DNA from: Massilicoli timonensis
GTDB taxonomy: Bacteria > Bacillota_I > Bacilli_A > Erysipelotrichales > Erysipelotrichaceae
Assembly: GCF_900199515.1 (NCBI RefSeq)
Contig: NZ_LT963434.1
Location: 1,083,272 to 1,115,271 of the forward strand
DNA length: 32,000 nucleotides
Direction: 5' to 3'
Under the pieces are notes generated by a model. The model made no database searches, was not told the origin of the DNA, and saw only the letters and a list, made by a program, of their open reading frames with translations. The translations under genes were made by a program, and so were the position numbers. The number at the start of each line of letters is the position of its first letter. The first letter of the stretch is position 1. Below are positions 1,531-18,644 of the stretch, piece by piece.

Positions 1531-2865
1531 TTATCGCTCCTGCTCCCGCGCCCTGCTTTGGGACGGGTAAAGAATACTATCGACGTTCTTTTTGACAATG
1601 CCGTATTCTTGCATTTGCTTTTTCGCTTGGCGGTAATCCTCATACAATTTGCTTTTTCTGTCGTTTAAGCTGCTATACTCCTTGCGCAGCGCGGCGAGAT
1701 CGGGCAGCTTCTTTATCTGCATTTCCTTTAATGCCCTTGCCGCAGCTTCAAACAGGATAATTTCGCTTTCATGCCCCCGCAGATACTTTTCCTTGTCCCG
1801 CGACTTCTTGTATTCCTCGTAAATCGGTTTTAATTGTCGGTATGTGGTCGTGTGCTTGATAAGCAGCGACAAATCAGACATACGCTGCTCTACGTCCTTA
1901 ACCGCCCTTGCCGCCGCGTCATGGGCGGTCATAATATCGGCTATCTTGCTTTCAAGTTCGCTATAATACTCAATCTTGTTTTCGGTTAGGAAGTTCATGC
2001 TTTTAGCAGCCTGTTTCAGATTATGGATTTTTGCCCACCGTTCATAGCCCGCCGACTGTTGGGCTTTGATACTGTTTTCAAGATCGACGACAATCCGGAT
2101 TTTCTTATCTTCCCGCAGCGTTTTTGTTTTGGCAACATACACGCCCTTGATACGCTCCTTTATCGCTTCTTCCGTATAGGCCGCGCCGAGCGTCTTTGTG
2201 CGGGTAAACCGTTCCTGTCCGGCAGCGCGAAAGGAAATGTATTTGCCCTGTTTGATTTCATACCCCATTTCCTGCAAGCGGCGCAGCAGTTCGTCAAAAT
2301 CTTTCACTTGGGGAATGAGAGTATCTATCGCCGTTTTCAGCTTTGCTTTGTAGCTTGTCCCTTGCTTTTCGGCGGTGTATTCTGCATAGCTTTTTCCCTT
2401 GTCCTGTCCCGGTACGACGACGGATAGCCCATGCTCTTTACATATCCTGTCGCTGGTGCGCCGGATAAAGTGATAGCTTTGCTTGTTGGAATGGTACTTT
2501 TTGTAGTCAACGAAGCTAACCGCGTTGAAAATCAAGTGATTATGCAGATGGTCTTTATCGACGTGAGTTGTCAAAACAAACTCATACTTGCCGCCTAATA
2601 CCGCCCCGGCAAGTTCCATGCCGATTTTGTGCGCTTCTTCCGGTGTGGTTTCTCCCACCGCAAAGGATTGTATCAAGTGCCGCCCTAAATGTGTGCCGCG
2701 ATCTCCGGCAGCTTCCCGCGTCCATGCAAACTCAATATCGGCGGTTTCCAGCCCGCAGCCGAAAGAGGACGCAAGCAGCTTCCCGTCTGTCTTTTCGGGA
2801 TTTAAGATATAGTCTATCGCAGCCTTTAAGGTTGATTTAATAGGGTGCGTCTTTGTAACCGCCAT
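1531..2865 (-). CDS. relaxase / mobilization nuclease (MobA/VirD2-type)
   Basis: 444 aa. N-terminal relaxase domain with the HVDKDHLHNHLIFN histidine triad. Sits immediately downstream of and overlapping mobC. C-terminal GYERWAKIHNLKQAAK motif is shared with the E2 relaxase. Confidence 0.85.
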   Translation of the reverse strand: MAVTKTHPIKSTLKAAIDYILNPEKTDGKLLASSFGCGLETADIEFAWTREAAGDRGTHLGRHLIQSFAVGETTPEEAHKIGMELAGAVLGGKYEFVLTTHVDKDHLHNHLIFNAVSFVDYKKYHSNKQSYHFIRRTSDRICKEHGLSVVVPGQDKGKSYAEYTAEKQGTSYKAKLKTAIDTLIPQVKDFDELLRRLQEMGYEIKQGKYISFRAAGQERFTRTKTLGAAYTEEAIKERIKGVYVAKTKTLREDKKIRIVVDLENSIKAQQSAGYERWAKIHNLKQAAKSMNFLTENKIEYYSELESKIADIMTAHDAAARAVKDVEQRMSDLSLLIKHTTTYRQLKPIYEEYKKSRDKEKYLRGHESEIILFEAAARALKEMQIKKLPDLAALRKEYSSLNDRKSKLYEDYRQAKKQMQEYGIVKKNVDSILYPSQSRAREQER

Positions 2866-3155
2866 ATCTCGTCCACCGCCTTTTTAATGTCCTCTATATC
2901 CTGCCTGTAAACCGTCCCCGTCGCATTGGCGCGTTTTGCAATCTGGTTGATGTTCCGGCTCACCGCTTGCAGTTCCCGGATATATGCTTTTGTGTCGCTT
3001 CGGTCAACGACAAGAATATACCCGTCTATCGCCATTTTACGGAAGTATGCCCCATACTGCTTTATGGGAAGCTGCTTCATCTTCTCGTCGATCAGCCGCT
3101 TTTCTTCTTCCGTAACGTAAAACTTCATCTGTATATTTCTCTTTCGGTTTTCCAT
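2826..3155 (-). CDS. mobC: MobC-family relaxosome accessory protein
   Basis: 109 aa. F.VTEEEK..I..K and the SRNINQIAKRAN motif are typical of MobC. The gene overlaps the relaxase start. Confidence 0.8.
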   Translation of the reverse strand: MENRKRNIQMKFYVTEEEKRLIDEKMKQLPIKQYGAYFRKMAIDGYILVVDRSDTKAYIRELQAVSRNINQIAKRANATGTVYRQDIEDIKKAVDEIWRLQRRTLLNQP

Positions 3156-3299: not shown

Positions 3300-3332
3300 A
3301 AAAAAAGATTGCAGCCCCTATGCGCTGCAATC
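3300..3332 (-). terminator. Rho-independent terminator after the XRE gene
   Basis: 9-bp stem GATTGCAGC (3307-3315) / GCTGCAATC (3324-3332). A 7-A run at 3300-3306 on the plus strand gives a U-tract on the minus strand. Confidence 0.65.
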
Positions 3333-3354
3333 TCCTGCTTCCCATATTGTGAGG

Positions 3355-3717
3355 TTAGTCCTCTGCTTGTTCGACTTCTGTTATCTCCCTTGCCGTTGCG
3401 GTTACAATCCGTATGCCTTTATCGCTCATACCGTCCAGCAGCGCGTCAAGCTGCCGCCGCCCGGTGGATTTCTCCGCATTGCTGTTCGGGAAGAAAAATT
3501 GATCTACCGAAATATGATACCGGGTTACAAGGTCATAGAATACCTGTAAACTCGGCTGTTGTCCCTTGTTCTCGATATTCGCAAGGTAGCGCGGGGAAAT
3601 ATATAACTCGTCGCTTACCTTTTTGCGGCTCTCGCCGTATTCATTTCTCGCGGCTTTTATAGCTGCCCCGAAAGCCTTAAAGTCGTACAATGGTACGGGT
3701 CTTTTTGCCATTTTCAT
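3355..3717 (-). CDS. XRE-family helix-turn-helix transcriptional regulator (Tn916 orf9-like position)
   Basis: 120 aa with an HTH_3-type core (SRKKVSDELYISPRYLANIENKGQQPSLQVFYDLV). Transcribed divergently from the cargo promoter. Confidence 0.85.
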   Translation of the reverse strand: MKMAKRPVPLYDFKAFGAAIKAARNEYGESRKKVSDELYISPRYLANIENKGQQPSLQVFYDLVTRYHISVDQFFFPNSNAEKSTGRRQLDALLDGMSDKGIRIVTATAREITEVEQAED

Positions 3718-3804
3718 TCACCCTGTTACATTTTACAGTTCACCTTTCTTTTTGGATATGTCCACACAATTCATATCATTAGGTTAAATACTTCCTGTTG
3801 TGTA

Positions 3805-3833
3805 TTGACAGTAGACTGATTTTCTTATAAAAT
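3805..3833 (+). promoter_or_regulatory. sigma-A type promoter of the cargo cassette
   Basis: TTGACA (3805-3810), a 17-nt spacer, then TAAAAT (3828-3833). Confidence 0.55.
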
Positions 3834-3861
3834 AAAATTTATGTAAAAGGAGGCGGCGTTT

Positions 3862-3888
3862 ATGTTGCATAGCATGCGTATTAGATAA
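3862..3888 (+). CDS. candidate leader peptide MLHSMRIR (8 codons)
   Basis: SD AAAGGAGG (3846-3853) lies 8 nt before the ATG. The ORF sits between the promoter and a strong terminator. Internal sequence is complementary to two downstream segments (3951-3957, 4002-4008). Confidence 0.4.
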   Translation: MLHSMRIR

Positions 3889-4040
3889 GCATTGAAAAAA
3901 AGGATTTTCCCATTTTCAACATGGGCTTTTTTGTCATGCTTATTTTGCGGATGCTATACAAAAAACTAACGACGTATAGATATAGTATAGACATAGTGCA
4001 AGCTATGCCTTAGTTTTGTTGTACTGCTCTGTGCATTATA

Positions 4041-4086
4041 AATGCAGGTCAATGCTCATGTTGAGGATTGACCTGCATTTTTTTGT
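4041..4086 (+). terminator. strong intrinsic terminator upstream of the KTR/radical-SAM genes (attenuator candidate)
   Basis: Perfect 13-bp stem AATGCAGGTCAAT (4041-4053) / ATTGACCTGCATT (4067-4079), followed by a T-run to 4086. It ends 23 nt before the KTR start codon. Confidence 0.75.
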
Positions 4087-4109
4087 GTAAAAAGGACGAG
4101 TGAAATATA

Positions 4110-4295
4110 ATGCTTAAAAAATATTGGATAAAATGTCCGATTTGTAACGGAAAGACGAGAGTTCAAGTATTTCATAATACTGTATTAAAAGATTTTCCTC
4201 TTTTCTGCCCTAAATGCAAATTGACGCATATCATTGATGTAGAAAAATTAGAGATTGTAATCAAAAATACAGAAAAACAAACTTTTATTATTTAG
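4110..4295 (+). CDS. cysteine-rich KTR domain protein (4-Cys zinc ribbon)
   Basis: 61 aa with CPICNGKTR and CPKC motifs. AT-rich codon usage. Stops 16 nt before the radical-SAM start. Confidence 0.8.
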   Translation: MLKKYWIKCPICNGKTRVQVFHNTVLKDFPLFCPKCKLTHIIDVEKLEIVIKNTEKQTFII

Positions 4296-4311
4296 AAGAA
4301 AGGATATAAAA

Positions 4312-5295
4312 ATGAAACGTTTACCTAAATATACGCCTGCGGAAGTACGGAATGATCCATACGGATTTACTTACAAAGAAATGTCGGAAGTTATTGGCGA
4401 GAATGAAGCAAAAGCCTTATATGAAGAATTATATAAGCAATTACCACGCAAAAAAAATCTATCAATGTTGGTAAAAAATATTTGCAAAAGCAGTGATACT
4501 GAAAAGTATGTTTACGAACTGAAAGACAACAAATACATTGAAACGGTTTTTATCAAGCGGCGAGATGGTGGAACTGTTTGCGTGAGCACACAAGTCGGTT
4601 GTCCTGTTGGTTGTATTTTTTGTGAGTCCGGGCGAAATGGCTTTGTTCGTAATCTAACATCGTCAGAAATCGTACAACAGATTATATTGTTGCGTCGAAA
4701 AGTAAACCGTATCGTTTTTATGGGTATGGGAGAGCCTTTATTCAATTATGACAACTTGATAAAAGCAATCCATATTCTCCGAGATAGATATGGGCTCAAC
4801 TTTCCAACCGACGGCATTACCATATCAACAGTTGGTCCGGTCGATCAATTAAAAAAATTGCGCGAGGAACATCTTAAAATTCAGTTGACAATATCTTTAC
4901 ACGCAGCAACACAATCTGCAAGAAATCGTATTATTCCTCACATGCGCATATATGCTATTGAAGATGTTGTTAAGCAAGCCTTATCCTATTCTGAAAGGCA
5001 TAATCGCAAAATTGTCTTTGCGTATTTGCTTTTACCGGGTATAAATGACCGGCCCTCAGATGTAAGACAACTTGCAAAATGGTTTCGGGGCAAAAAAGTT
5101 ATGATTAACGTGTTACAATACAACCCAACAAGCAATTCAAGAATTAAAGCACCACAGAAACGGGAAATAGTTGCATTCAAACATCAATTAGAGCAAGCAG
5201 GACTTGAAGTTACTATGAGAGTTTCTCATGGCAGAGAGATTAACGCGGCTTGTGGACAGTTAGCTAACACATATAATAAATTCAAAAAAAAATGA
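4312..5295 (+). CDS. RlmN/Cfr-family radical-SAM 23S rRNA (A2503) methyl synthase homologue
   Basis: 327 aa. TVCVSTQVGCPVGCIFC (Cys90 plus the Cys97/101/104 radical-SAM cluster), FMGMGEPL, ITISTVG, LTISLHA and C-terminal INAACGQL (Cys314) align block for block with E. coli RlmN and S. aureus Cfr as I remember them. SD GAAAGGA precedes the ATG. Confidence 0.9.
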   Translation: MKRLPKYTPAEVRNDPYGFTYKEMSEVIGENEAKALYEELYKQLPRKKNLSMLVKNICKSSDTEKYVYELKDNKYIETVFIKRRDGGTVCVSTQVGCPVGCIFCESGRNGFVRNLTSSEIVQQIILLRRKVNRIVFMGMGEPLFNYDNLIKAIHILRDRYGLNFPTDGITISTVGPVDQLKKLREEHLKIQLTISLHAATQSARNRIIPHMRIYAIEDVVKQALSYSERHNRKIVFAYLLLPGINDRPSDVRQLAKWFRGKKVMINVLQYNPTSNSRIKAPQKREIVAFKHQLEQAGLEVTMRVSHGREINAACGQLANTYNKFKKK

Positions 5296-5323
5296 TTAAA
5301 AGTGCCAGACGCATAGACGCAGA

Positions 5324-5370
5324 GCCGATAACGCATTAGGTCAAAAAACCTATGTGTTATCGGCTTTTTT
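5324..5370 (+). terminator. Rho-independent terminator after the radical-SAM gene
   Basis: Stem GCCGATAAC (5324-5332) / GTTATCGGC (5356-5364), followed by TTTTTT (5365-5370). Confidence 0.75.
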
Positions 5371-5448
5371 ATTTAATATTGCGCAAAAGCCGCTGTTCCC
5401 TATTATAGAATGGATTGCGGGTAGTGTATTAAAGTCGCCCTTTTTTAA

Positions 5449-5493
5449 GGATACGGCGGTATCGGGGAGGTATCGCCGTGTCCATTTTTATTT
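5449..5493 (+). terminator. terminator-like hairpin 2
   Basis: GGATACGGCGGTATC (5449-5463) / GTATCGCCGTGTCC (5470-5483) with two G-U pairs, followed by ATTTTTATTT. Confidence 0.5.
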
Positions 5494-5605
5494 ACTGTAA
5501 CCCGCCTAATGCTTTGCGGTCAAAAAAAGCTATGCTCCGCAAGCGGGATATTCCGGCTATGAGTATGAACTGTCAATACATCTAAATACTTCTTACATTT
5601 CCTTT

Positions 5606-5647
5606 GCGCTCGTCCGCGTCTTGCGGACGGGCGCATTTTGCTTTTTT
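5606..5647 (+). terminator. terminator-like hairpin 3 upstream of the sigma factor gene
   Basis: GCGCTCGTCCGC (5606-5617) / GCGGACGGGCGC (5623-5634), followed by ATTTTGCTTTTTT. Confidence 0.5.
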
Positions 5648-5768
5648 CAACTTTTTTCTGAAAAACGCACTCAAGAGCCATCTCCCGAACGGGTACGGAG
5701 CGAAAGGGGCAGAGAGGACAAGCCCTTAACTCCCGTCCTCTACTCCACGCGGGAAGGAGGTGAACTCT

Positions 5769-6206
5769 ATGGAGCTATCTTCTTCCGACAAGGAAAGAAT
5801 ACAACATCAGTACGACGCATTAGCAAAGAAAACTTTGGTTGGCGAAGCGAAAAGCCACCGCCGCACTCTTGCGAAACGCGCAGCACGCGAAGTACCTTTT
5901 TCGGATTTGAGCGAAAGCGAACTCGCGCAGCTTTTCACAACGGACGAATACAAAAGCGATTATTTCCGTTTTCAAGTGTCCGGCTTTGATGTACTCGTCA
6001 AAAATGAACTGCTTGCCGAAGCCCTTAACGCTTTGCCCGAAAGGAAACGCGACATTATCCTTTTGTCCTACTTCTTGGACATGAGCGACGCGGAAATTGC
6101 TGAACTGCTGAATGTTGTACGCACGACGGTTTTCCGGCACAGGAAATCCGCGCTTGCGAAAATCAAACAGTATTTGGAGGGAAAAGCAGATGATGAATAC
6201 CGTTAG
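5769..6206 (+). CDS. sigma-70 family RNA polymerase sigma factor (Tn916 orf7-like)
   Basis: The ORF track starts at GTG 5760, but ATG 5769 has SD GGAAGGAGG 8 nt upstream. Region-4 HTH present (LSYFLDMSDAEIAELLNVVRTTVFRHRKSAL). Confidence 0.8.
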   Translation: MELSSSDKERIQHQYDALAKKTLVGEAKSHRRTLAKRAAREVPFSDLSESELAQLFTTDEYKSDYFRFQVSGFDVLVKNELLAEALNALPERKRDIILLSYFLDMSDAEIAELLNVVRTTVFRHRKSALAKIKQYLEGKADDEYR

Positions 6207-6432
6207 GAAATCTGAAAATCTGTTGCCGTTCCCTGTCATTTCCGCAGCGGCAAACGGCGACACAACCGCCATGTGCGCGATCTTGAAGCATTACGAGGGT
6301 TACATAGCGAAACTTTGTACCCGCACGCTGAAAGACGACGCGGGCAATACCTATTCCTATGTGGACGAGGAAATGCGTAACAGGCTGCAAGTGCGCCTTA
6401 TTACCCGCACCCTTGCTTTTCATGTAGGATAA
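6190..6432 (+). CDS. HTH_16-type helix-turn-helix protein (Tn916 orf8-like)
   Basis: ATG 6190 follows SD GGAGGG and overlaps the sigma stop. AAANGDTTAMCAILKHYEGYI resembles the conjugative-transposon HTH family and parallels E2 ORF 14406-14609 (AHEGDPDAIDTILSHYAGYI). Confidence 0.7.
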   Translation: MMNTVRKSENLLPFPVISAAANGDTTAMCAILKHYEGYIAKLCTRTLKDDAGNTYSYVDEEMRNRLQVRLITRTLAFHVG

Positions 6433-6438
6433 TCTTTT

Positions 6439-6845
6439 AGCCCATGCGGGGAGCGTGTCCCCTTTCCACGCTTCCCGTTATGGGCTATTTGTCGTTCCGT
6501 AACAGCACATCGGAAACGGTGTACTGTTACAGGCCGACAAAGCCTATTGTTCCTTGACAAAGAAAGCGGCCTTTGGTGCGCAGCATAACAGGCAACGGGT
6601 ACATTCCGTCTGTACCGAGCCGGGCGGCGGGTACGCCATGACCGCTTTTCCCCGTTGGGGAAAAGTCGAGCGAGAACTACCGCGCCGTAAAACAAGTTTA
6701 GCAGCTTGTGGGCGACGACATACAAGGCGGCACAATGATACTCCCGCGTTGAACACCCTCAAAGTATTGCGCGGCGCACCCATAAGCATGGGCCGGGGTG
6801 AAACTCCCGTGAGGTTGCAGCTAACAACCGCCCGTTTTGCCTTTT
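6439..6845 (+). ncRNA. candidate structured RNA / structured 5' leader of the tnpW-recombinase operon (unclassified)
   Basis: 455-bp GC-rich gap with no convincing ORF. Nested 17-bp hairpin at 6439-6486; 13-bp hairpin capped by a GAAA tetraloop at 6499-6530; perfect 9-bp stem at 6645-6665. Long-range complements: 6575-6581 with 6774-6780, and 6621-6627 with 6828-6834. Confidence 0.3.
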
Positions 6846-6887
6846 GACGAATATAGTTTATCCATACAGGAAAAGGAGGTTTTTCTA

Positions 6888-7061
6888 ATGGATAAAAAAC
6901 AGACAATTACAACCGAACGCAAAATAGGGAAAATCACCTATCTTGTTCAAGCGTTGCCGAGTGAAAAGGCAACCGATACAATCCATAAAAAGATTGAAAA
7001 ACTCATTGTAAAGGATTTGCAGAAAAAGCCCGGAAATCCGGGCTTTTTAGCGTCCGAGTAG
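6888..7061 (+). CDS. TnpW-family small transposon protein
   Basis: ATG 6888 is preceded by SD AAAAGGAGG. 57 aa. ERKIGKITYLVQALPSEKATDTIHKKIEKLI parallels the E2 ORF (EIRMGNTVLVVSGFFKKDTTSTAADKMARVL). Both sit directly upstream of a serine recombinase gene. Confidence 0.6.
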   Translation: MDKKQTITTERKIGKITYLVQALPSEKATDTIHKKIEKLIVKDLQKKPGNPGFLASE

Positions 7062-7080
7062 TGCATTAGGCGGCGGGATA

Positions 7081-7089
7081 TGGTATAAT
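7081..7089 (+). promoter_or_regulatory. extended -10 promoter element (TGGTATAAT) upstream of the recombinase
   Basis: TGnTATAAT match located 50 nt before the recombinase ATG. Confidence 0.35.
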
Positions 7090-7138
7090 GATAGCAACAC
7101 ATTATACCTGTTTATTCGGCTGTCGGAAAGGAGGACTA

Positions 7139-9035
<1,897 letters not shown>

Positions 9036-15188: not shown

Positions 15189-15956
15189 TTATTTTAAGCT
15201 ATCACGTTTTACCTTCTTAAGCCTTACTATCATTACCATAGGAATTTCTTTGTTGGTTTTGAAACATTCTTCATAAAATCCATCAATGACAAATCCAGCT
15301 CTAAAACAAAGGTTAAAAATATCTTGTATGGAACGATGATAATAAATCTGCTCTTTCGGTTGCCCTTCAATCGCTATATCATAGTAACTGTGCGGTGTCA
15401 TATATTTTTCAGTCAACGTGACAAAACAAGGGTGTTGCGTTGCAAAGACAAAAATTCCGCTTTCCTGCAACAGTTCATAAACAGCCATAAGAAGTGGTTC
15501 AATGTCCGTAATATCCATAATTGCCATATTAGAAACTGCTTTCGTAAAGGCTCGATTTCTTTTTAATTCTAATATACTTTTTCTATCGGTCGCATCCGCC
15601 ACACAAAATTCAATTTGTTTTGCATATTGTGATTGCCGTCTTTTAGCCAATTCTATCATTTTTTTGCTGTAATCAAAAGCGACAACCGAAGCACCTCTTT
15701 GTGCAAGATACGAAGAATAATTTCCATTGCCACACGCAATATCCAAAATGTAATCCGCAGGATTAGGAGATAGAAGTTCCGTTACTTTGGGGCGCACTAC
15801 CTCTCTGTGAAATTCATTAGATTCGTCACCCATTGCATTATCCCAAAATTGTGCGTTCTCCTCCCAGATTTTTTTACTTTCCTCTGTTCCCATGTTCTCT
15901 CCCACTCCCAAAATTTGCTTTTTTGCTTCCATTAAATCTTCCTTACTATATTCCAT
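15189..15956 (-). CDS. class I SAM-dependent methyltransferase (substrate unknown)
   Basis: 255 aa. Motif I ILDIACGNGNYS, acidic loop VVAFDYS, and post-I/II motifs. AT-rich. Confidence 0.85.
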   Translation of the reverse strand: MEYSKEDLMEAKKQILGVGENMGTEESKKIWEENAQFWDNAMGDESNEFHREVVRPKVTELLSPNPADYILDIACGNGNYSSYLAQRGASVVAFDYSKKMIELAKRRQSQYAKQIEFCVADATDRKSILELKRNRAFTKAVSNMAIMDITDIEPLLMAVYELLQESGIFVFATQHPCFVTLTEKYMTPHSYYDIAIEGQPKEQIYYHRSIQDIFNLCFRAGFVIDGFYEECFKTNKEIPMVMIVRLKKVKRDSLK

Positions 15957-16724: not shown

Positions 16725-18644
16725 TTACATTATCTTCTGAAACATATAGCGCACCTTGTCCAGGCGGCTGTTTGGACGGCGGGGCTGGATGACTGGCTTG
16801 CCGACAGCGGCCTGATACCCTTTCAGTTCTGTAAGGCATACGCTCTGCCCGTTGGTGTAAAAGGCCAGATCAGTACGGTATGCCTGTATACAGCGGGCGG
16901 GAATCTCGCCAGTAAAGACAACTTCATCCTTTTTTACCTGGACCGTTTCGATGGTGGCACAGTATTTCGGTGCATCATGATAAGCCCTGGAAAGATATTC
17001 CCGGGGCGCATAGAGGGTGAAGGAGAGATAAGGTTCCAGCAGTTGCGTCCCTGATTCCTTCAATGCCTGTTCCAATACAATCGGGGCCAATGAGCGGAAG
17101 TCCGCCGGCGTGCTGACCGGACTGTAATAAAGCCCGTATTCAAAGCAAATCTTACAGTCCGTTACGTTCCAGCCGAACAAGCCCTGCTCCAGCCCGTAAC
17201 GGATACCATCCCTGACAGCGTTTTGAAAACTCTGGTTCAAGTATCCCAGCGAAACCCGGCTCTCGTATTGTACACCGGAGCCAAGCGGGAGTGGTGTAAC
17301 AGACAGTCCGATGGATGCCCAAAACGGGTTGGGCGGCACCTCGATATGGATGGTGTGGCTGGCTGCTTTGAGCGGCCGCTCCATATAAATGACGGTGGGT
17401 TCCTTTACCACTGTTTCAAGCTTGTATTTTTCCGACAGCAAAGCGGAAACAACCTCCAACTGCACCCGGCCCAAAAAAGAAAGAATGATCTCATGGGTGA
17501 TGGAATCCACCTCGCAGCGCAAAAGCGGGTCAGTATCCGCAAGTTGCGTAAGAGCGTCCAGCAGCCGTTCTCTTTGCGCTGCCGTTTTCGGCGCAATCGA
17601 CGTCCGCAGCATGGGGAGGGGGTCCTCACGCCACCTTTTACGAGGGAGCCGGGTTGGGTCCCCTAATACATCGTTTAACCTCACGCTGTCGCTGGGAAGG
17701 ATAACAATTTCACCCGGATAAGCGGTGTCTGTCCGAACAATTTCCCCTTTGGATGGAATACGCATCTCTGTGATTTTCAGCTTTTCTCTCCCGGCCAGGG
17801 CCACCGTATCCCGCAGGCGCAGCGTTCCGCTGTATAGCCGTAGATAGACACGCCGCTGGCCGCAATCTGTATACTCCACCTTGAAAACGCTGCCGCATAG
17901 GGCGGCGCTCCCCTGTTCCCCAATCGGTTGGAACAGCCCTGTCACCGCATCCATCAACGGTTGAATGCCAAGGCCCTTTTTGGCGCTGCCATAATAGACC
18001 GGGAACAGGGAGGCGTCTTGAACCCGCCGCTGTTCCTCCCGCACAAGTTTTTCCCGGCTGATTGGTTCTCCTGCGATATACTTTTCCAATAATTTATCGT
18101 TATTTTCGATGACCGCATCCCATGCTTCTATGTCGGTATTTTCCTCCAGGACTATTTCCGGGGACAGCGACACCGTCTGCTTGATGATAATATCGGCGGA
18201 GAGCTTATCCCGAACAGACTGAACCACGCTCTGCAAATCAACGCCAGCCTGGTCGATCTTGTTGATAAAGATAACGGTGGGAATGTTCATTTTCCGCAGG
18301 GCATGGAACAGAATACGGGTCTGGGCCTGCACGCCATCTTTAGCGGAGATCACCAAGATGGCCCCATCTAAAACAGCCAAAGAGCGGTACACCTCCGCCA
18401 AAAAATCCATGTGGCCGGGCGTATCCACAATGTTGACTTTACATCTGTGCCACTGGAAGGAAGTGACTGCCGCTTGAATGGTAATCCCACGCTGCCGCTC
18501 CAAAAACATGGTGTCCGTCCTCGTTGTCCCTTTTTCGACGCTCCCCGGTTCTGAAATGGCTCCGCTGGCATATAGCAGGCTCTCCGTCAAGGTCGTCTTT
18601 CCAGCGTCTACATGGGCAAGAATTCCAATATTGATTATTTTCAT
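16725..18644 (-). CDS. tet(W): ribosomal protection tetracycline resistance protein, Tet(W)-type
   Basis: 639 aa. EF-G-like GTPase ([18 protein letters not shown]). N-terminal [53 protein letters not shown] and C-terminal ...[13 protein letters not shown] match Tet(W) as I remember it and differ from Tet(M)/Tet(O). A mosaic tet allele cannot be excluded by eye. Confidence 0.92.

Follow-up and report, generated by a model that had tools for sequence, protein, structure and literature searches.

The DNA considered here is a 32,000-nucleotide (nt) stretch of contig NZ_LT963434.1 from Massilicoli timonensis (hereafter the window), and our subject is its positions 3805-4109, where a promoter and a leader region precede an operon of two genes, KTR and mrmA, encoding a cysteine-rich zinc-ribbon protein and a radical S-adenosylmethionine (SAM) rRNA methyltransferase, respectively. 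The features of this locus are collected in Table 1. We consider it likely that the region is a transcription attenuator dependent on a leader peptide, of the type represented by Mef(E)L and ErmDL, that controls the KTR-mrmA operon. The first-pass annotation, made from the letters without database searches, had also proposed a ribosome-sensing, leader-peptide transcription attenuator in front of an rRNA-methylase operon, and this proposal is supported by membership of an RNA family (RF02862), by folding and by conservation. It had further not recognised the leader as a described one and had expected an inducer that acts at the peptidyl-transferase centre; neither of these ideas is supported, for the reasons set out below.

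Transcription of the leader is predicted to start at about position 3840, from a sigma-70-type promoter that is the only 11/12 match found by a script scan of both strands of 3300-7200. The TTGACA element and the identical 17-nt spacing are kept in three diverged relatives (the L001 type, the L015 type and the Paenibacillus locus L013). The main variant of this leader, present in 17 genomes, reads TGATAAAAT, which is an extended -10 element, and the window has a T for the G of this element. This change, at 3825-3827 (CTTATAAAAT in the window versus CTGATAAAAT in the main variant), is the sole difference within the 321-nt leader, and the extended -10 (TG) of the others is therefore absent from the window. 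The remaining elements that had been picked out by eye were recovered as well: the promoter and the ribosome-binding site ahead of the tiny open reading frame (ORF) were reproduced by script; the weak hairpin with its T-run is present as CCCAT...ATGGG followed by T6, and forms part of the apex of a much longer hairpin, P1; and the 13-bp stem with T7 is likewise present, in an interval that had been drawn to end at 4086, 23 nt before the KTR start codon at 4110.

Table 1. Features of the leader and operon in the window (positions are those of the window).
Feature	Position	Strand	Description
Sigma-70-type promoter	3805-3833 (TTGACA 3805-3810; TAAAAT 3828-3833)	+	TTGACA-17 nt-TAAAAT; 11/12 match, from sequence
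Ribosome-binding site	3847-3853	+	AAGGAGG, 8 nt ahead of the leader ORF ATG
Long hairpin P1	3853-3975	+	Equivalent of mef(E) R1/R2; 5' arm 3853-3903, 3' arm 3926-3975; -41 kcal/mol
Leader ORF	3862-3888	+	ATGTTGCATAGCATGCGTATTAGATAA, translated as MLHSMRIR and stop
P1 apex	3896-3932	+	A-run/T-run pairing and CCCAT/ATGGG; small hairpin 3909-3932 with T6 after it; -6.8 kcal/mol alone
Variable middle region	3976-4036	+	Position of mef(E) R3/R4; contains CATAG (3992-3996) and CTATG (4003-4007)
Intrinsic terminator (predicted)	4040-4084	+	Perfect 13-bp stem AATGCAGGTCAAT/ATTGACCTGCATT, 14 bp with A4040:U4080; -26.3 kcal/mol
Anti-terminator, downstream strand (proposed)	4054-4068	+	GCTCATGTTGAGGAT; pairs with 3912-3926 (ATTTTCAACATGGGC); 15 bp, 3 of them G-U
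KTR	4110-4295	+	61-amino-acid cysteine-rich zinc-ribbon protein; PF14205, 75.4 bits; first operon gene
mrmA	4312-5295	+	RlmN/Cfr-family radical-SAM rRNA methyltransferase; published primers match exactly
Terminator-like hairpins	5449-5483 and 5605-5635	+	Two, strong; close the operon ahead of a sigma-factor gene at 5760

The peptide encoded by the leader ORF, MLHSMRIR, carries a macrolide arrest motif. In the +X+ pattern (Arg/Lys-X-Arg/Lys), as defined by PMC12583479 and PMC10314930, Arg or Lys occupies positions -1 and +1 about the P-site residue near the end of a short ORF, and Arg6-Ile7-Arg8 fits this arrangement. The shortest functional version is MRLR, and X tolerates Leu or Cys (PMC12583479, PMC10314930). 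On ErmDL, the ribosome halts when X is in the P site and the A site holds Arg (PMC12583479); by analogy, we predict a stall that places codon Ile7 (3880-3882) in the P site and codon Arg8 (3883-3885) in the A site. MLHSMRIR can be aligned with Mef(E)L (MTASMRLR) codon for codon and is nearer still to ErmDL (MTHSMRLR...), with which it has five of its eight residues in common (H3, S4, M5, R6 and R8).

Conservation of the leader was followed by scanning species-representative genomes for the pattern of the ORF end (ATG-MGN-NTN-MGN-TAA) together with GGCTTTTTT, which gave at least 120 loci. The identical peptide MLHSMRIR was encoded in at least 50 species genomes, in addition to one copy without a start codon. 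Between the window-type and the L001-type leaders, which are 84% identical, the ORF differs at two places only, TTG/TTA and AGA/CGA, and both changes are synonymous. A more distant leader, L125, encodes MLHSIRIRK; this one was reached through its protein and is independent of the scan pattern.

The RNA itself falls within a family that has been catalogued. Positions 3864-4085 (+) match Rfam RF02862 ("Enterococcus sRNA_1300") over the whole model (1-231 of 231; E = 2e-8), with a score of 49.5 bits against a curated gathering threshold of 48.8; the L001-type relative scores 45.0, L125 29.3, and the Paenibacillus Msr-type leaders 53-57 bits. The RF02862 consensus begins with ACAGCCTCAATGCGTTTAAGATAA, that is, with codons 2-8 and the stop codon of MTASMRLR. 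Compared with plasmids, this consensus matched 18 records, in which the real mef(A) loci were 93-96% identical, and the match lies directly before mef(A) in S. agalactiae and before a mel/msr(D) remnant in E. faecium. A 2026 paper also reports that mef(A) upstream regions match RF02862 (PMC13613805). Far from being new, the leader belongs to the mef(A/E) leader family, and the mef(E)/mel member of this family is a proven macrolide-inducible transcription attenuator (PMC4335068). Mutations have shown that the leader ORF, its ribosome-binding site, R1/R2, R3/R4 and the terminator each control induction by erythromycin: inactivation of the Mef(E)L ribosome-binding site abolishes resistance, expression without inducer is 6.8-fold higher when the terminator is deleted, neither R1/R2 nor R3/R4 can be dispensed with for induction, and the stalled ribosome also stabilises the mRNA (PMC4335068).

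The entry under which Rfam files this family raises the question of whether the terminated leader is mainly a trans-acting small RNA (sRNA), with control of the downstream genes being incidental. A stable 230-nt RNA, sRNA_1300, which is the terminated RNA of the mef-type copy, does accumulate from a genomic island of E. faecium, as validated by northern blotting (PMC5593968), and it has been suggested that the mef leaders may yield trans-acting sRNAs (PMC13613805). However, no target is known, mutations in mef(E) act in cis (PMC4335068), and the ORF has changed only at synonymous sites, which indicates that the peptide is under selection. Among the matches listed, the family always lies directly upstream of macrolide-resistance genes and in the same orientation, and variants without the terminator keep the operon. 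A primarily trans-acting role is, therefore, a most improbable account of this leader.

The window leader and the mef(E)/mel and mef(A)/msr(D) leaders have the same plan. Each has an 8-codon ORF that ends Ser-Met-Arg-X-Arg-stop and has its own ribosome-binding site; each has a long hairpin that encloses the ORF and has an A-run/U-run apex, then a middle region, and then, shortly before the first gene, a terminator of the form ATGCAG...CTGCA plus U-tract; and in each the fold switches when the ORF is masked. Common blocks are GATAAGC, the A-run, GGCTTTTTTG, TGCTTAT and ATGCAG...CTGCATTTTTT. The differences are also considerable. By an estimate from the alignment, only about 55-60% of bases are shared; the peptides differ (MLHSMRIR versus MTASMRLR); the window terminator is much stronger (-26 versus -15 to -18 kcal/mol); the extended dIR1/dIR2 pairing of the mef leader (GGCAATAAAAAA with TTTTTTATTGCC) is missing, as is an R7/R8 hairpin; and the cargo is KTR and mrmA, whereas the mef leader precedes an efflux pump and an ABC-F protein. 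The likeness to the erm(K)/erm(D) leader, ErmDL, lies in the H-S-M-R-x-R core, the +X+ motif and a cargo that is a macrolide-protective rRNA methyltransferase. According to the account of it in PMC4335068, erm(K) is controlled by transcription attenuation, and its leader RNA lacks similarity to the mef leader (PMC4335068). ErmDL is, however, longer, at 13-14 codons, and the enzymes differ in kind: Erm proteins methylate A2058 as N6-methyltransferases, and MrmA belongs to the radical-SAM enzymes. With the translational attenuators of ermC, cat and cmlA, the window leader has in common the remodelling of downstream RNA by a drug-stalled ribosome on a short ORF. Those attenuators free a sequestered ribosome-binding site, whereas the window leader would control an intrinsic terminator. 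A translational attenuator of the ermC/cat type was considered here and set aside: neither the minimum-energy nor the centroid fold pairs any of 4087-4109, which includes the KTR ribosome-binding region at 4092-4100, and the element under control would be the terminator.

Folding supports a structured, plus-strand RNA. The region 3840-4090 folds at -85.6 kcal/mol compared with -58.6 +/- 4.4 kcal/mol in shuffles (z = -6.2; 0 of 200 as good), and it is 14 kcal/mol more stable than its complementary strand, which is what a role for G-U pairs on the plus strand would lead one to expect. The 5' arm of P1 contains the whole leader ORF. All 15 diverged leaders that were folded singly form the same long hairpin (-40 to -65 kcal/mol), which takes in the spacer, the start codon and the whole ORF. 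RNAalifold on a plain MAFFT alignment recovered only fragments of this hairpin because of indels, and a covariance model was used instead; it was built from the hairpin and searched at a threshold of 1e-15, as E = 0.01 had brought antisense matches, after which 33 loci were aligned with it. In this model-fitted alignment 10 pairs changed on both sides, and the covariation score was 0.150; shuffles gave 0.082, none of 500 reaching the observed score, and sliding the partners gave 0.084 or less. Comparison of homologous leaders, which had been suggested as a check on the attenuator, thus shows a conserved small ORF and a covarying long hairpin. The terminator, whose function is predicted from its structure, also has a small apical stem (CTCA/TGAG) before its T7 (4078-4084), and compensatory changes between classes occur within it (at pair 232:256, 7 sequences have UA and 6 have CG). 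The middle region aligns poorly between classes; CATAG and CTATG could pair there as R3/R4, and the minimum-energy fold uses other pairs. The sequence GGCTTTTTT is invariant in 15 aligned leaders, but the scan that retrieved them had required it.

The identity of the cargo bears directly on the likely inducer. Published mrmA cloning primers (PMC11983580) match 4315-4334 (+) and 5273-5295 (-) exactly, so that the downstream gene, as compared at its primer-covered ends, is the same as the mrmA cloned from Tn6105 of C. difficile RT176 (WP_002584956.1). MrmA has been described as an "RlmN-type" methyltransferase of a lineage apart from RlmN and Cfr (PMC11983580). The enzyme in the window misses the NCBIfam RlmN cut-off (277.6 versus 290) and is rejected as a Cfr protein both by the three Cfr models (193-200 versus 468-550 bits) and by the active-site residues that are conserved in Cfr and matter for its activity (Y97, W101, S103, S151, S153, Q329 and F330, as given by PMC12887959), of which 0 of 7 are present, the aligned residues being R, G, T, R, V, S and H. 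In Escherichia coli, MrmA raises the minimal inhibitory concentration (MIC) of erythromycin 512-fold and that of pristinamycin IA about 8-fold or more, and leaves those of tylosin, clindamycin, tiamulin, chloramphenicol, linezolid and pristinamycin IIA unchanged; the resistance spectrum is, therefore, 14-membered macrolides plus streptogramin B and not streptogramin A (PMC11983580). The KTR gene was not needed for this resistance, as mrmA was cloned alone (PMC11983580). Among the matches listed, every genome locus that is intact has KTR together with the leader and mrmA, and the exact KTR protein has also been recorded from C. difficile; a literature search on cysteine-rich KTR proteins gave nothing useful.

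The macrolide arrest motif, the homology to ErmDL and Mef(E)L, and the spectrum of MrmA together lead us to expect a macrolide or ketolide as the inducer, and this sensing logic matches what MrmA protects against. The first-pass annotation had instead proposed that the attenuator senses drugs of the peptidyl-transferase centre (phenicols, oxazolidinones, lincosamides, pleuromutilins and streptogramin A) and turns on a Cfr-like methylase; in its favour are an enzyme of the RlmN/Cfr family and the short leader ORFs that control cat, cml and some ABC-F genes. We now regard it as highly improbable: the peptide has the macrolide motif and is homologous to ErmDL and Mef(E)L (PMC12583479), the enzyme is MrmA and not Cfr, and chloramphenicol, linezolid, clindamycin, tiamulin and streptogramin A are the very drugs against which MrmA gives no change in MIC (PMC11983580), its protection being directed at erythromycin and streptogramin B.

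On the attenuator model that we favour, ribosomes would, in the absence of drug, complete the 8-codon ORF and leave; the ORF-bearing 5' arm would then pair with 3926-3975 to form the long hairpin, the terminator at 4040-4084 would form, and transcription would stop after about 245 nt of leader RNA. If the exit tunnel is occupied by a ketolide or by a macrolide with a 14- or 15-membered ring, translation would arrest on Met-Arg-Ile with Arg-tRNA in the A site. The arrested ribosome would cover roughly 3865-3897 and block the base of the long hairpin, the weak apex would open, and 3912-3926 with its flanks could pair with the apex and arms of the emerging terminator (4044-4074). RNA polymerase would then continue into KTR and mrmA, and MrmA would protect the ribosome against the same drugs.

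Several observations are consistent with such a switch. The proposed 15-bp pairing can be extended by flanks (3901-3903 with 4072-4074, and 3933-3940 with 4044-4051), and its upstream strand, 3912-3926, is the 3' half of the P1 apex. In the window, the duplex between apex and terminator has an energy of -21.8 to -25.2 kcal/mol, which 12 of 1000 and 3 of 300 shuffles equalled; in 15 relatives from all classes, the corresponding duplexes reach -24 to -38 kcal/mol, values that 0-3 of 300 shuffles equalled. In every class, the segment that begins with the A-run, takes in the apex hairpin and reaches into the 3' arm is complementary to the terminator along its whole length, with sequences that are specific to the class. 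When a stalled ribosome was modelled by masking 3865-3897 in truncated transcripts ending at 4062-4070, the probability of pair 3920:4060 was 0.82-1.0, as opposed to 0.0 without masking; folding with and without the ORF, which had been suggested as a check on the attenuator, thus reveals a switch to the alternative pairing in truncated transcripts, with the terminator winning at full length. When the proven mef(E) leader was masked in the same way, it folded into its anti-terminator even as a full-length transcript, showing that the method recognises a known switch and that the window terminator is simply tighter. For the anti-attenuator of mef(E), made from the distal repeats dIR1 (A-rich, 6 nt past the ORF) and dIR2 (the 3' arm of the terminator with its U-tract), the picture in the window is mixed: the A-run also begins 6 nt past the leader stop codon, but it can pair here only as A7 with U7, and what is present is a broader apex-to-terminator duplex that takes in this pairing in the other classes.

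The complementarities from which the switch had been deduced before this analysis had mixed fates. All three are exact in the sequence, and that between ATAGCAT (3869-3875) and ATGCTAT (3951-3957) is real, being part of the conserved hairpin that buries the ORF. The pairing of GCATAGC (3867-3873) with GCTATGC (4002-4008) loses both of its end pairs in the L001 type without compensation, and is unsupported though still conceivable. The anti-terminator postulated between TGCATT (4032-4037) and AATGCA (4041-4046) consists of six A/U-rich pairs around a 3-nt loop, and TGCATT is absent from the L001-type leaders, in which the terminator is kept; this pairing was rejected, and TGCATT serves instead as one of the deletion repeats in the variants L082, L086 and L124. 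Conservation of alternative pairings, therefore, holds for a different pairing (3912-3926 with 4054-4068, in all classes) and is incomplete or lacking for these two. A further candidate, pairing the extreme 5' leader (3851-3864) with the 5' arm of the terminator (4036-4051), was at chance level (530 of 1000 shuffles as good) and was rejected.

Set against the attenuator model are a number of points. Once 4080, or the whole 3' arm, is available, the terminator wins at equilibrium even with the ORF masked, and so the switch must be kinetic; the mef(E) anti-terminator, unlike that of the window, is also the equilibrium fold. The A-run/U-tract pairing proposed for mef(E) (dIR1/dIR2) amounts here to only seven A-U pairs, and the shuffle control for the anti-terminator does not keep the hairpin character of both segments. 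The match to RF02862 exceeds its threshold by only 0.7 bits. The conservation of Arg6 and Arg8 among the scanned loci is partly built in, as the scan pattern forced Arg codons at these places. Finally, the pair counts for P1 come from an alignment fitted to its model, which makes the covariation moderate support, and only 75% of the cells in the 33-locus alignment are paired, because the three leader classes differ in register.

It is also conceivable that the leader has decayed or is insensitive to drug and is no more than a leaky, constitutive terminator inherited with the cassette. A terminator stronger than that of mef(E), an anti-terminator that loses at equilibrium, and erythromycin MICs of >256 mg/L for mrmA-positive C. 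difficile without reported pre-induction (PMC11983580) would all fit. However, the promoter, ribosome-binding site, peptide, hairpin and terminator are kept across the two types that are 84% identical and the distant L125, and the alternative pairing keeps pace with class-specific sequence. In addition, deletions of the terminator arise and persist, suggesting that the terminator matters. We judge decay to be very unlikely.

The distribution of the leader agrees with a sensor dedicated to macrolide resistance. The MLHSMRIR class comprises at least 52 loci, 41 of which have an intact leader, KTR and an MrmA of 327-329 amino acids; of the rest of the 52 listed, 3 lack exactly the terminator, 2 have a larger deletion and 3 stand at a contig edge, and the single variants have lost 23 nt of the middle region (L025), lost the promoter and start codon, or have an A-run shorter by one A. 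All 52 listed loci carry KTR-mrmA or a deletion derivative of it, except the 3 cut by contig ends. Leaders encoding MTASMRLR and followed by Mef, mostly with Msr(D) after it, account for at least 57 loci, and four to five of the matches listed are chance matches. Six Paenibacillus loci among the matches listed (L013, L059, L072, L076, L081 and L112) encode a variant peptide or one of MLHAMRIR, MFHSMRLR, MIHSMRLR and MVYFMRLR; a protein of 469-487 amino acids is encoded by the next long ORF in five of them, and the sixth, L081, is cut by a contig end. The one Paenibacillus protein scored passes the model for Msr-family ABC-F proteins (707 bits versus a cut-off of 680). Every other cargo of the leader family among the matches listed is a macrolide-resistance gene. 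These Paenibacillus leaders belong to the same RNA family and have the same hairpin, terminator and apex-to-terminator complementarity as the window. They differ in lacking a KTR gene and in having a second, conserved small ORF followed by a hairpin over the ABC-F ribosome-binding site, which suggests two tiers of control, as in mefA/msrD. The second ORF encodes MRYMHWYFFI, MRGMHWYFFI or MTMRGMHWYFFI and lies about 60-130 nt past the first terminator in L013, L059, L072, L076 and L112.

Natural variants of the leader provide predictions about expression. In three species (L082, L086 and L124) an exact deletion of 42 nt between the TGCATT repeats (4032-4037 and 4074-4079) removes the terminator, and we predict that these species express KTR-mrmA constitutively. 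In L029 (Collinsella) and L048 (Olsenella), a deletion has removed the hairpin's 3' arm, the terminator and the KTR gene, joining GGGCTTTTTTG to the last KTR codons with mrmA directly after; the L029 mrmA is also frameshifted (69 + 260 amino acids). In L012 (3266-3400) the promoter and the start of the ORF are replaced (ATG to GAG) and the hairpin and terminator are intact, so that this copy of the leader should not respond to inducer. The leader measures only 118 nt in two mef-type loci; such shortening occurs in constitutive erm leaders.

Linkage of the leader to MrmA-like enzymes appears to extend to relatives of about 73% identity or more. A 73%-identical relative of mrmA in L125 lies in a different element and keeps the promoter, the MLHSIRIRK ORF, hairpin and terminator, followed by KTR, the leader having diverged. 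MrmA-like relatives of 66-69% identity (L128 and L131) were found to have no KTR and no such leader. The 69%-identical gene in L131 stands behind a different leader of about 130 nt (2833-3000), with its own promoter-like site and a terminator-like hairpin with a T-run and without a match in Rfam; a fluoride riboswitch (RF01734) is nearby on the other strand. Four further MrmA-like proteins of 62-67% identity (P0087, P0076, P0119 and P0113) have a long Lys/Arg-rich C-terminal tail and carry RESRG in place of the RVSHG of MrmA. The setting, looked at for P0087, is an apparently chromosomal region near a tmRNA gene.

The mrmA gene was described in 2025 as a new kind of macrolide-resistance gene (PMC11983580), and AMRFinderPlus missed it in C. 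difficile isolates that were mrmA-positive (PMC11983580, PMC12409861). Among gut commensals the cassette is very common, with its exact protein on at least 1000 contigs and the leader in at least 52 species genomes; a phage collection gave no match. The words "leader" and "attenuat" have zero occurrences in the mrmA paper (PMC11983580), a follow-up reports the presence of the gene and mentions no leader (PMC12409861), and in the papers searched we found neither the leader peptide strings nor a description of mrmA regulation. Hence, what is new here is not the leader family but its link to mrmA, the natural deletions that may be constitutive, and the reuse of one ErmDL/MefAL-type sensor before resistance mechanisms of three unrelated kinds, namely efflux, protection of the ribosome by ABC-F proteins and methylation by a radical-SAM enzyme. 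If the leader works like its mef(E) relative, mrmA would be macrolide-inducible, which would affect susceptibility testing (inducible versus constitutive) and the reading of genotypes, since constitutive expression would be expected wherever the terminator has been deleted naturally. The KTR zinc-ribbon protein, encoded on the same transcript, may be flagged as a candidate partner of mrmA.

The neighbouring genes suggest one further possibility. An Xre-type helix-turn-helix (HTH) regulator on the minus strand is followed, all on the plus strand, by the leader, KTR, mrmA, a sigma-70 region 4 gene, an HTH_16 gene, a pemK RNA motif and a serine recombinase, and the same order is found in L001. 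Drug-induced read-through past the two hairpins that follow mrmA could reach the sigma-factor, HTH_16 and recombinase genes, in which case macrolides might also trigger excision and transfer of the element among gut Firmicutes. Tetracycline is reported to stimulate transfer of Tn916 through the tet(M) leader, and this idea would be the macrolide counterpart. Gene order and orientation, in the window and in L001, would permit it; however, the two hairpins are strong and terminator-like, and the L125 cassette has other surroundings, from which the genes for the sigma factor, the HTH_16 protein and the recombinase are absent. We therefore consider such a coupling to transfer unlikely.

Two observations on the surroundings may be added. 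The pemK RNA motif (RF02913; threshold 34.8 bits) occurs at 6732-6812 (+) in the window and at 7913-8010 in L001 (Monoglobus), scoring 49 and 60 bits, respectively, and occupies the same relative place between the HTH_16 and serine-recombinase genes in both. Elsewhere in the window, a ribosomal protection gene of the TetM/W/O/S family (16725-18644 on the minus strand; NF033148, 1285 bits) stands beside a class I SAM methyltransferase gene (15189-15956, minus strand), and this region looks like a second mobile insertion next to chromosomal housekeeping genes, which run from about 19000 onward.

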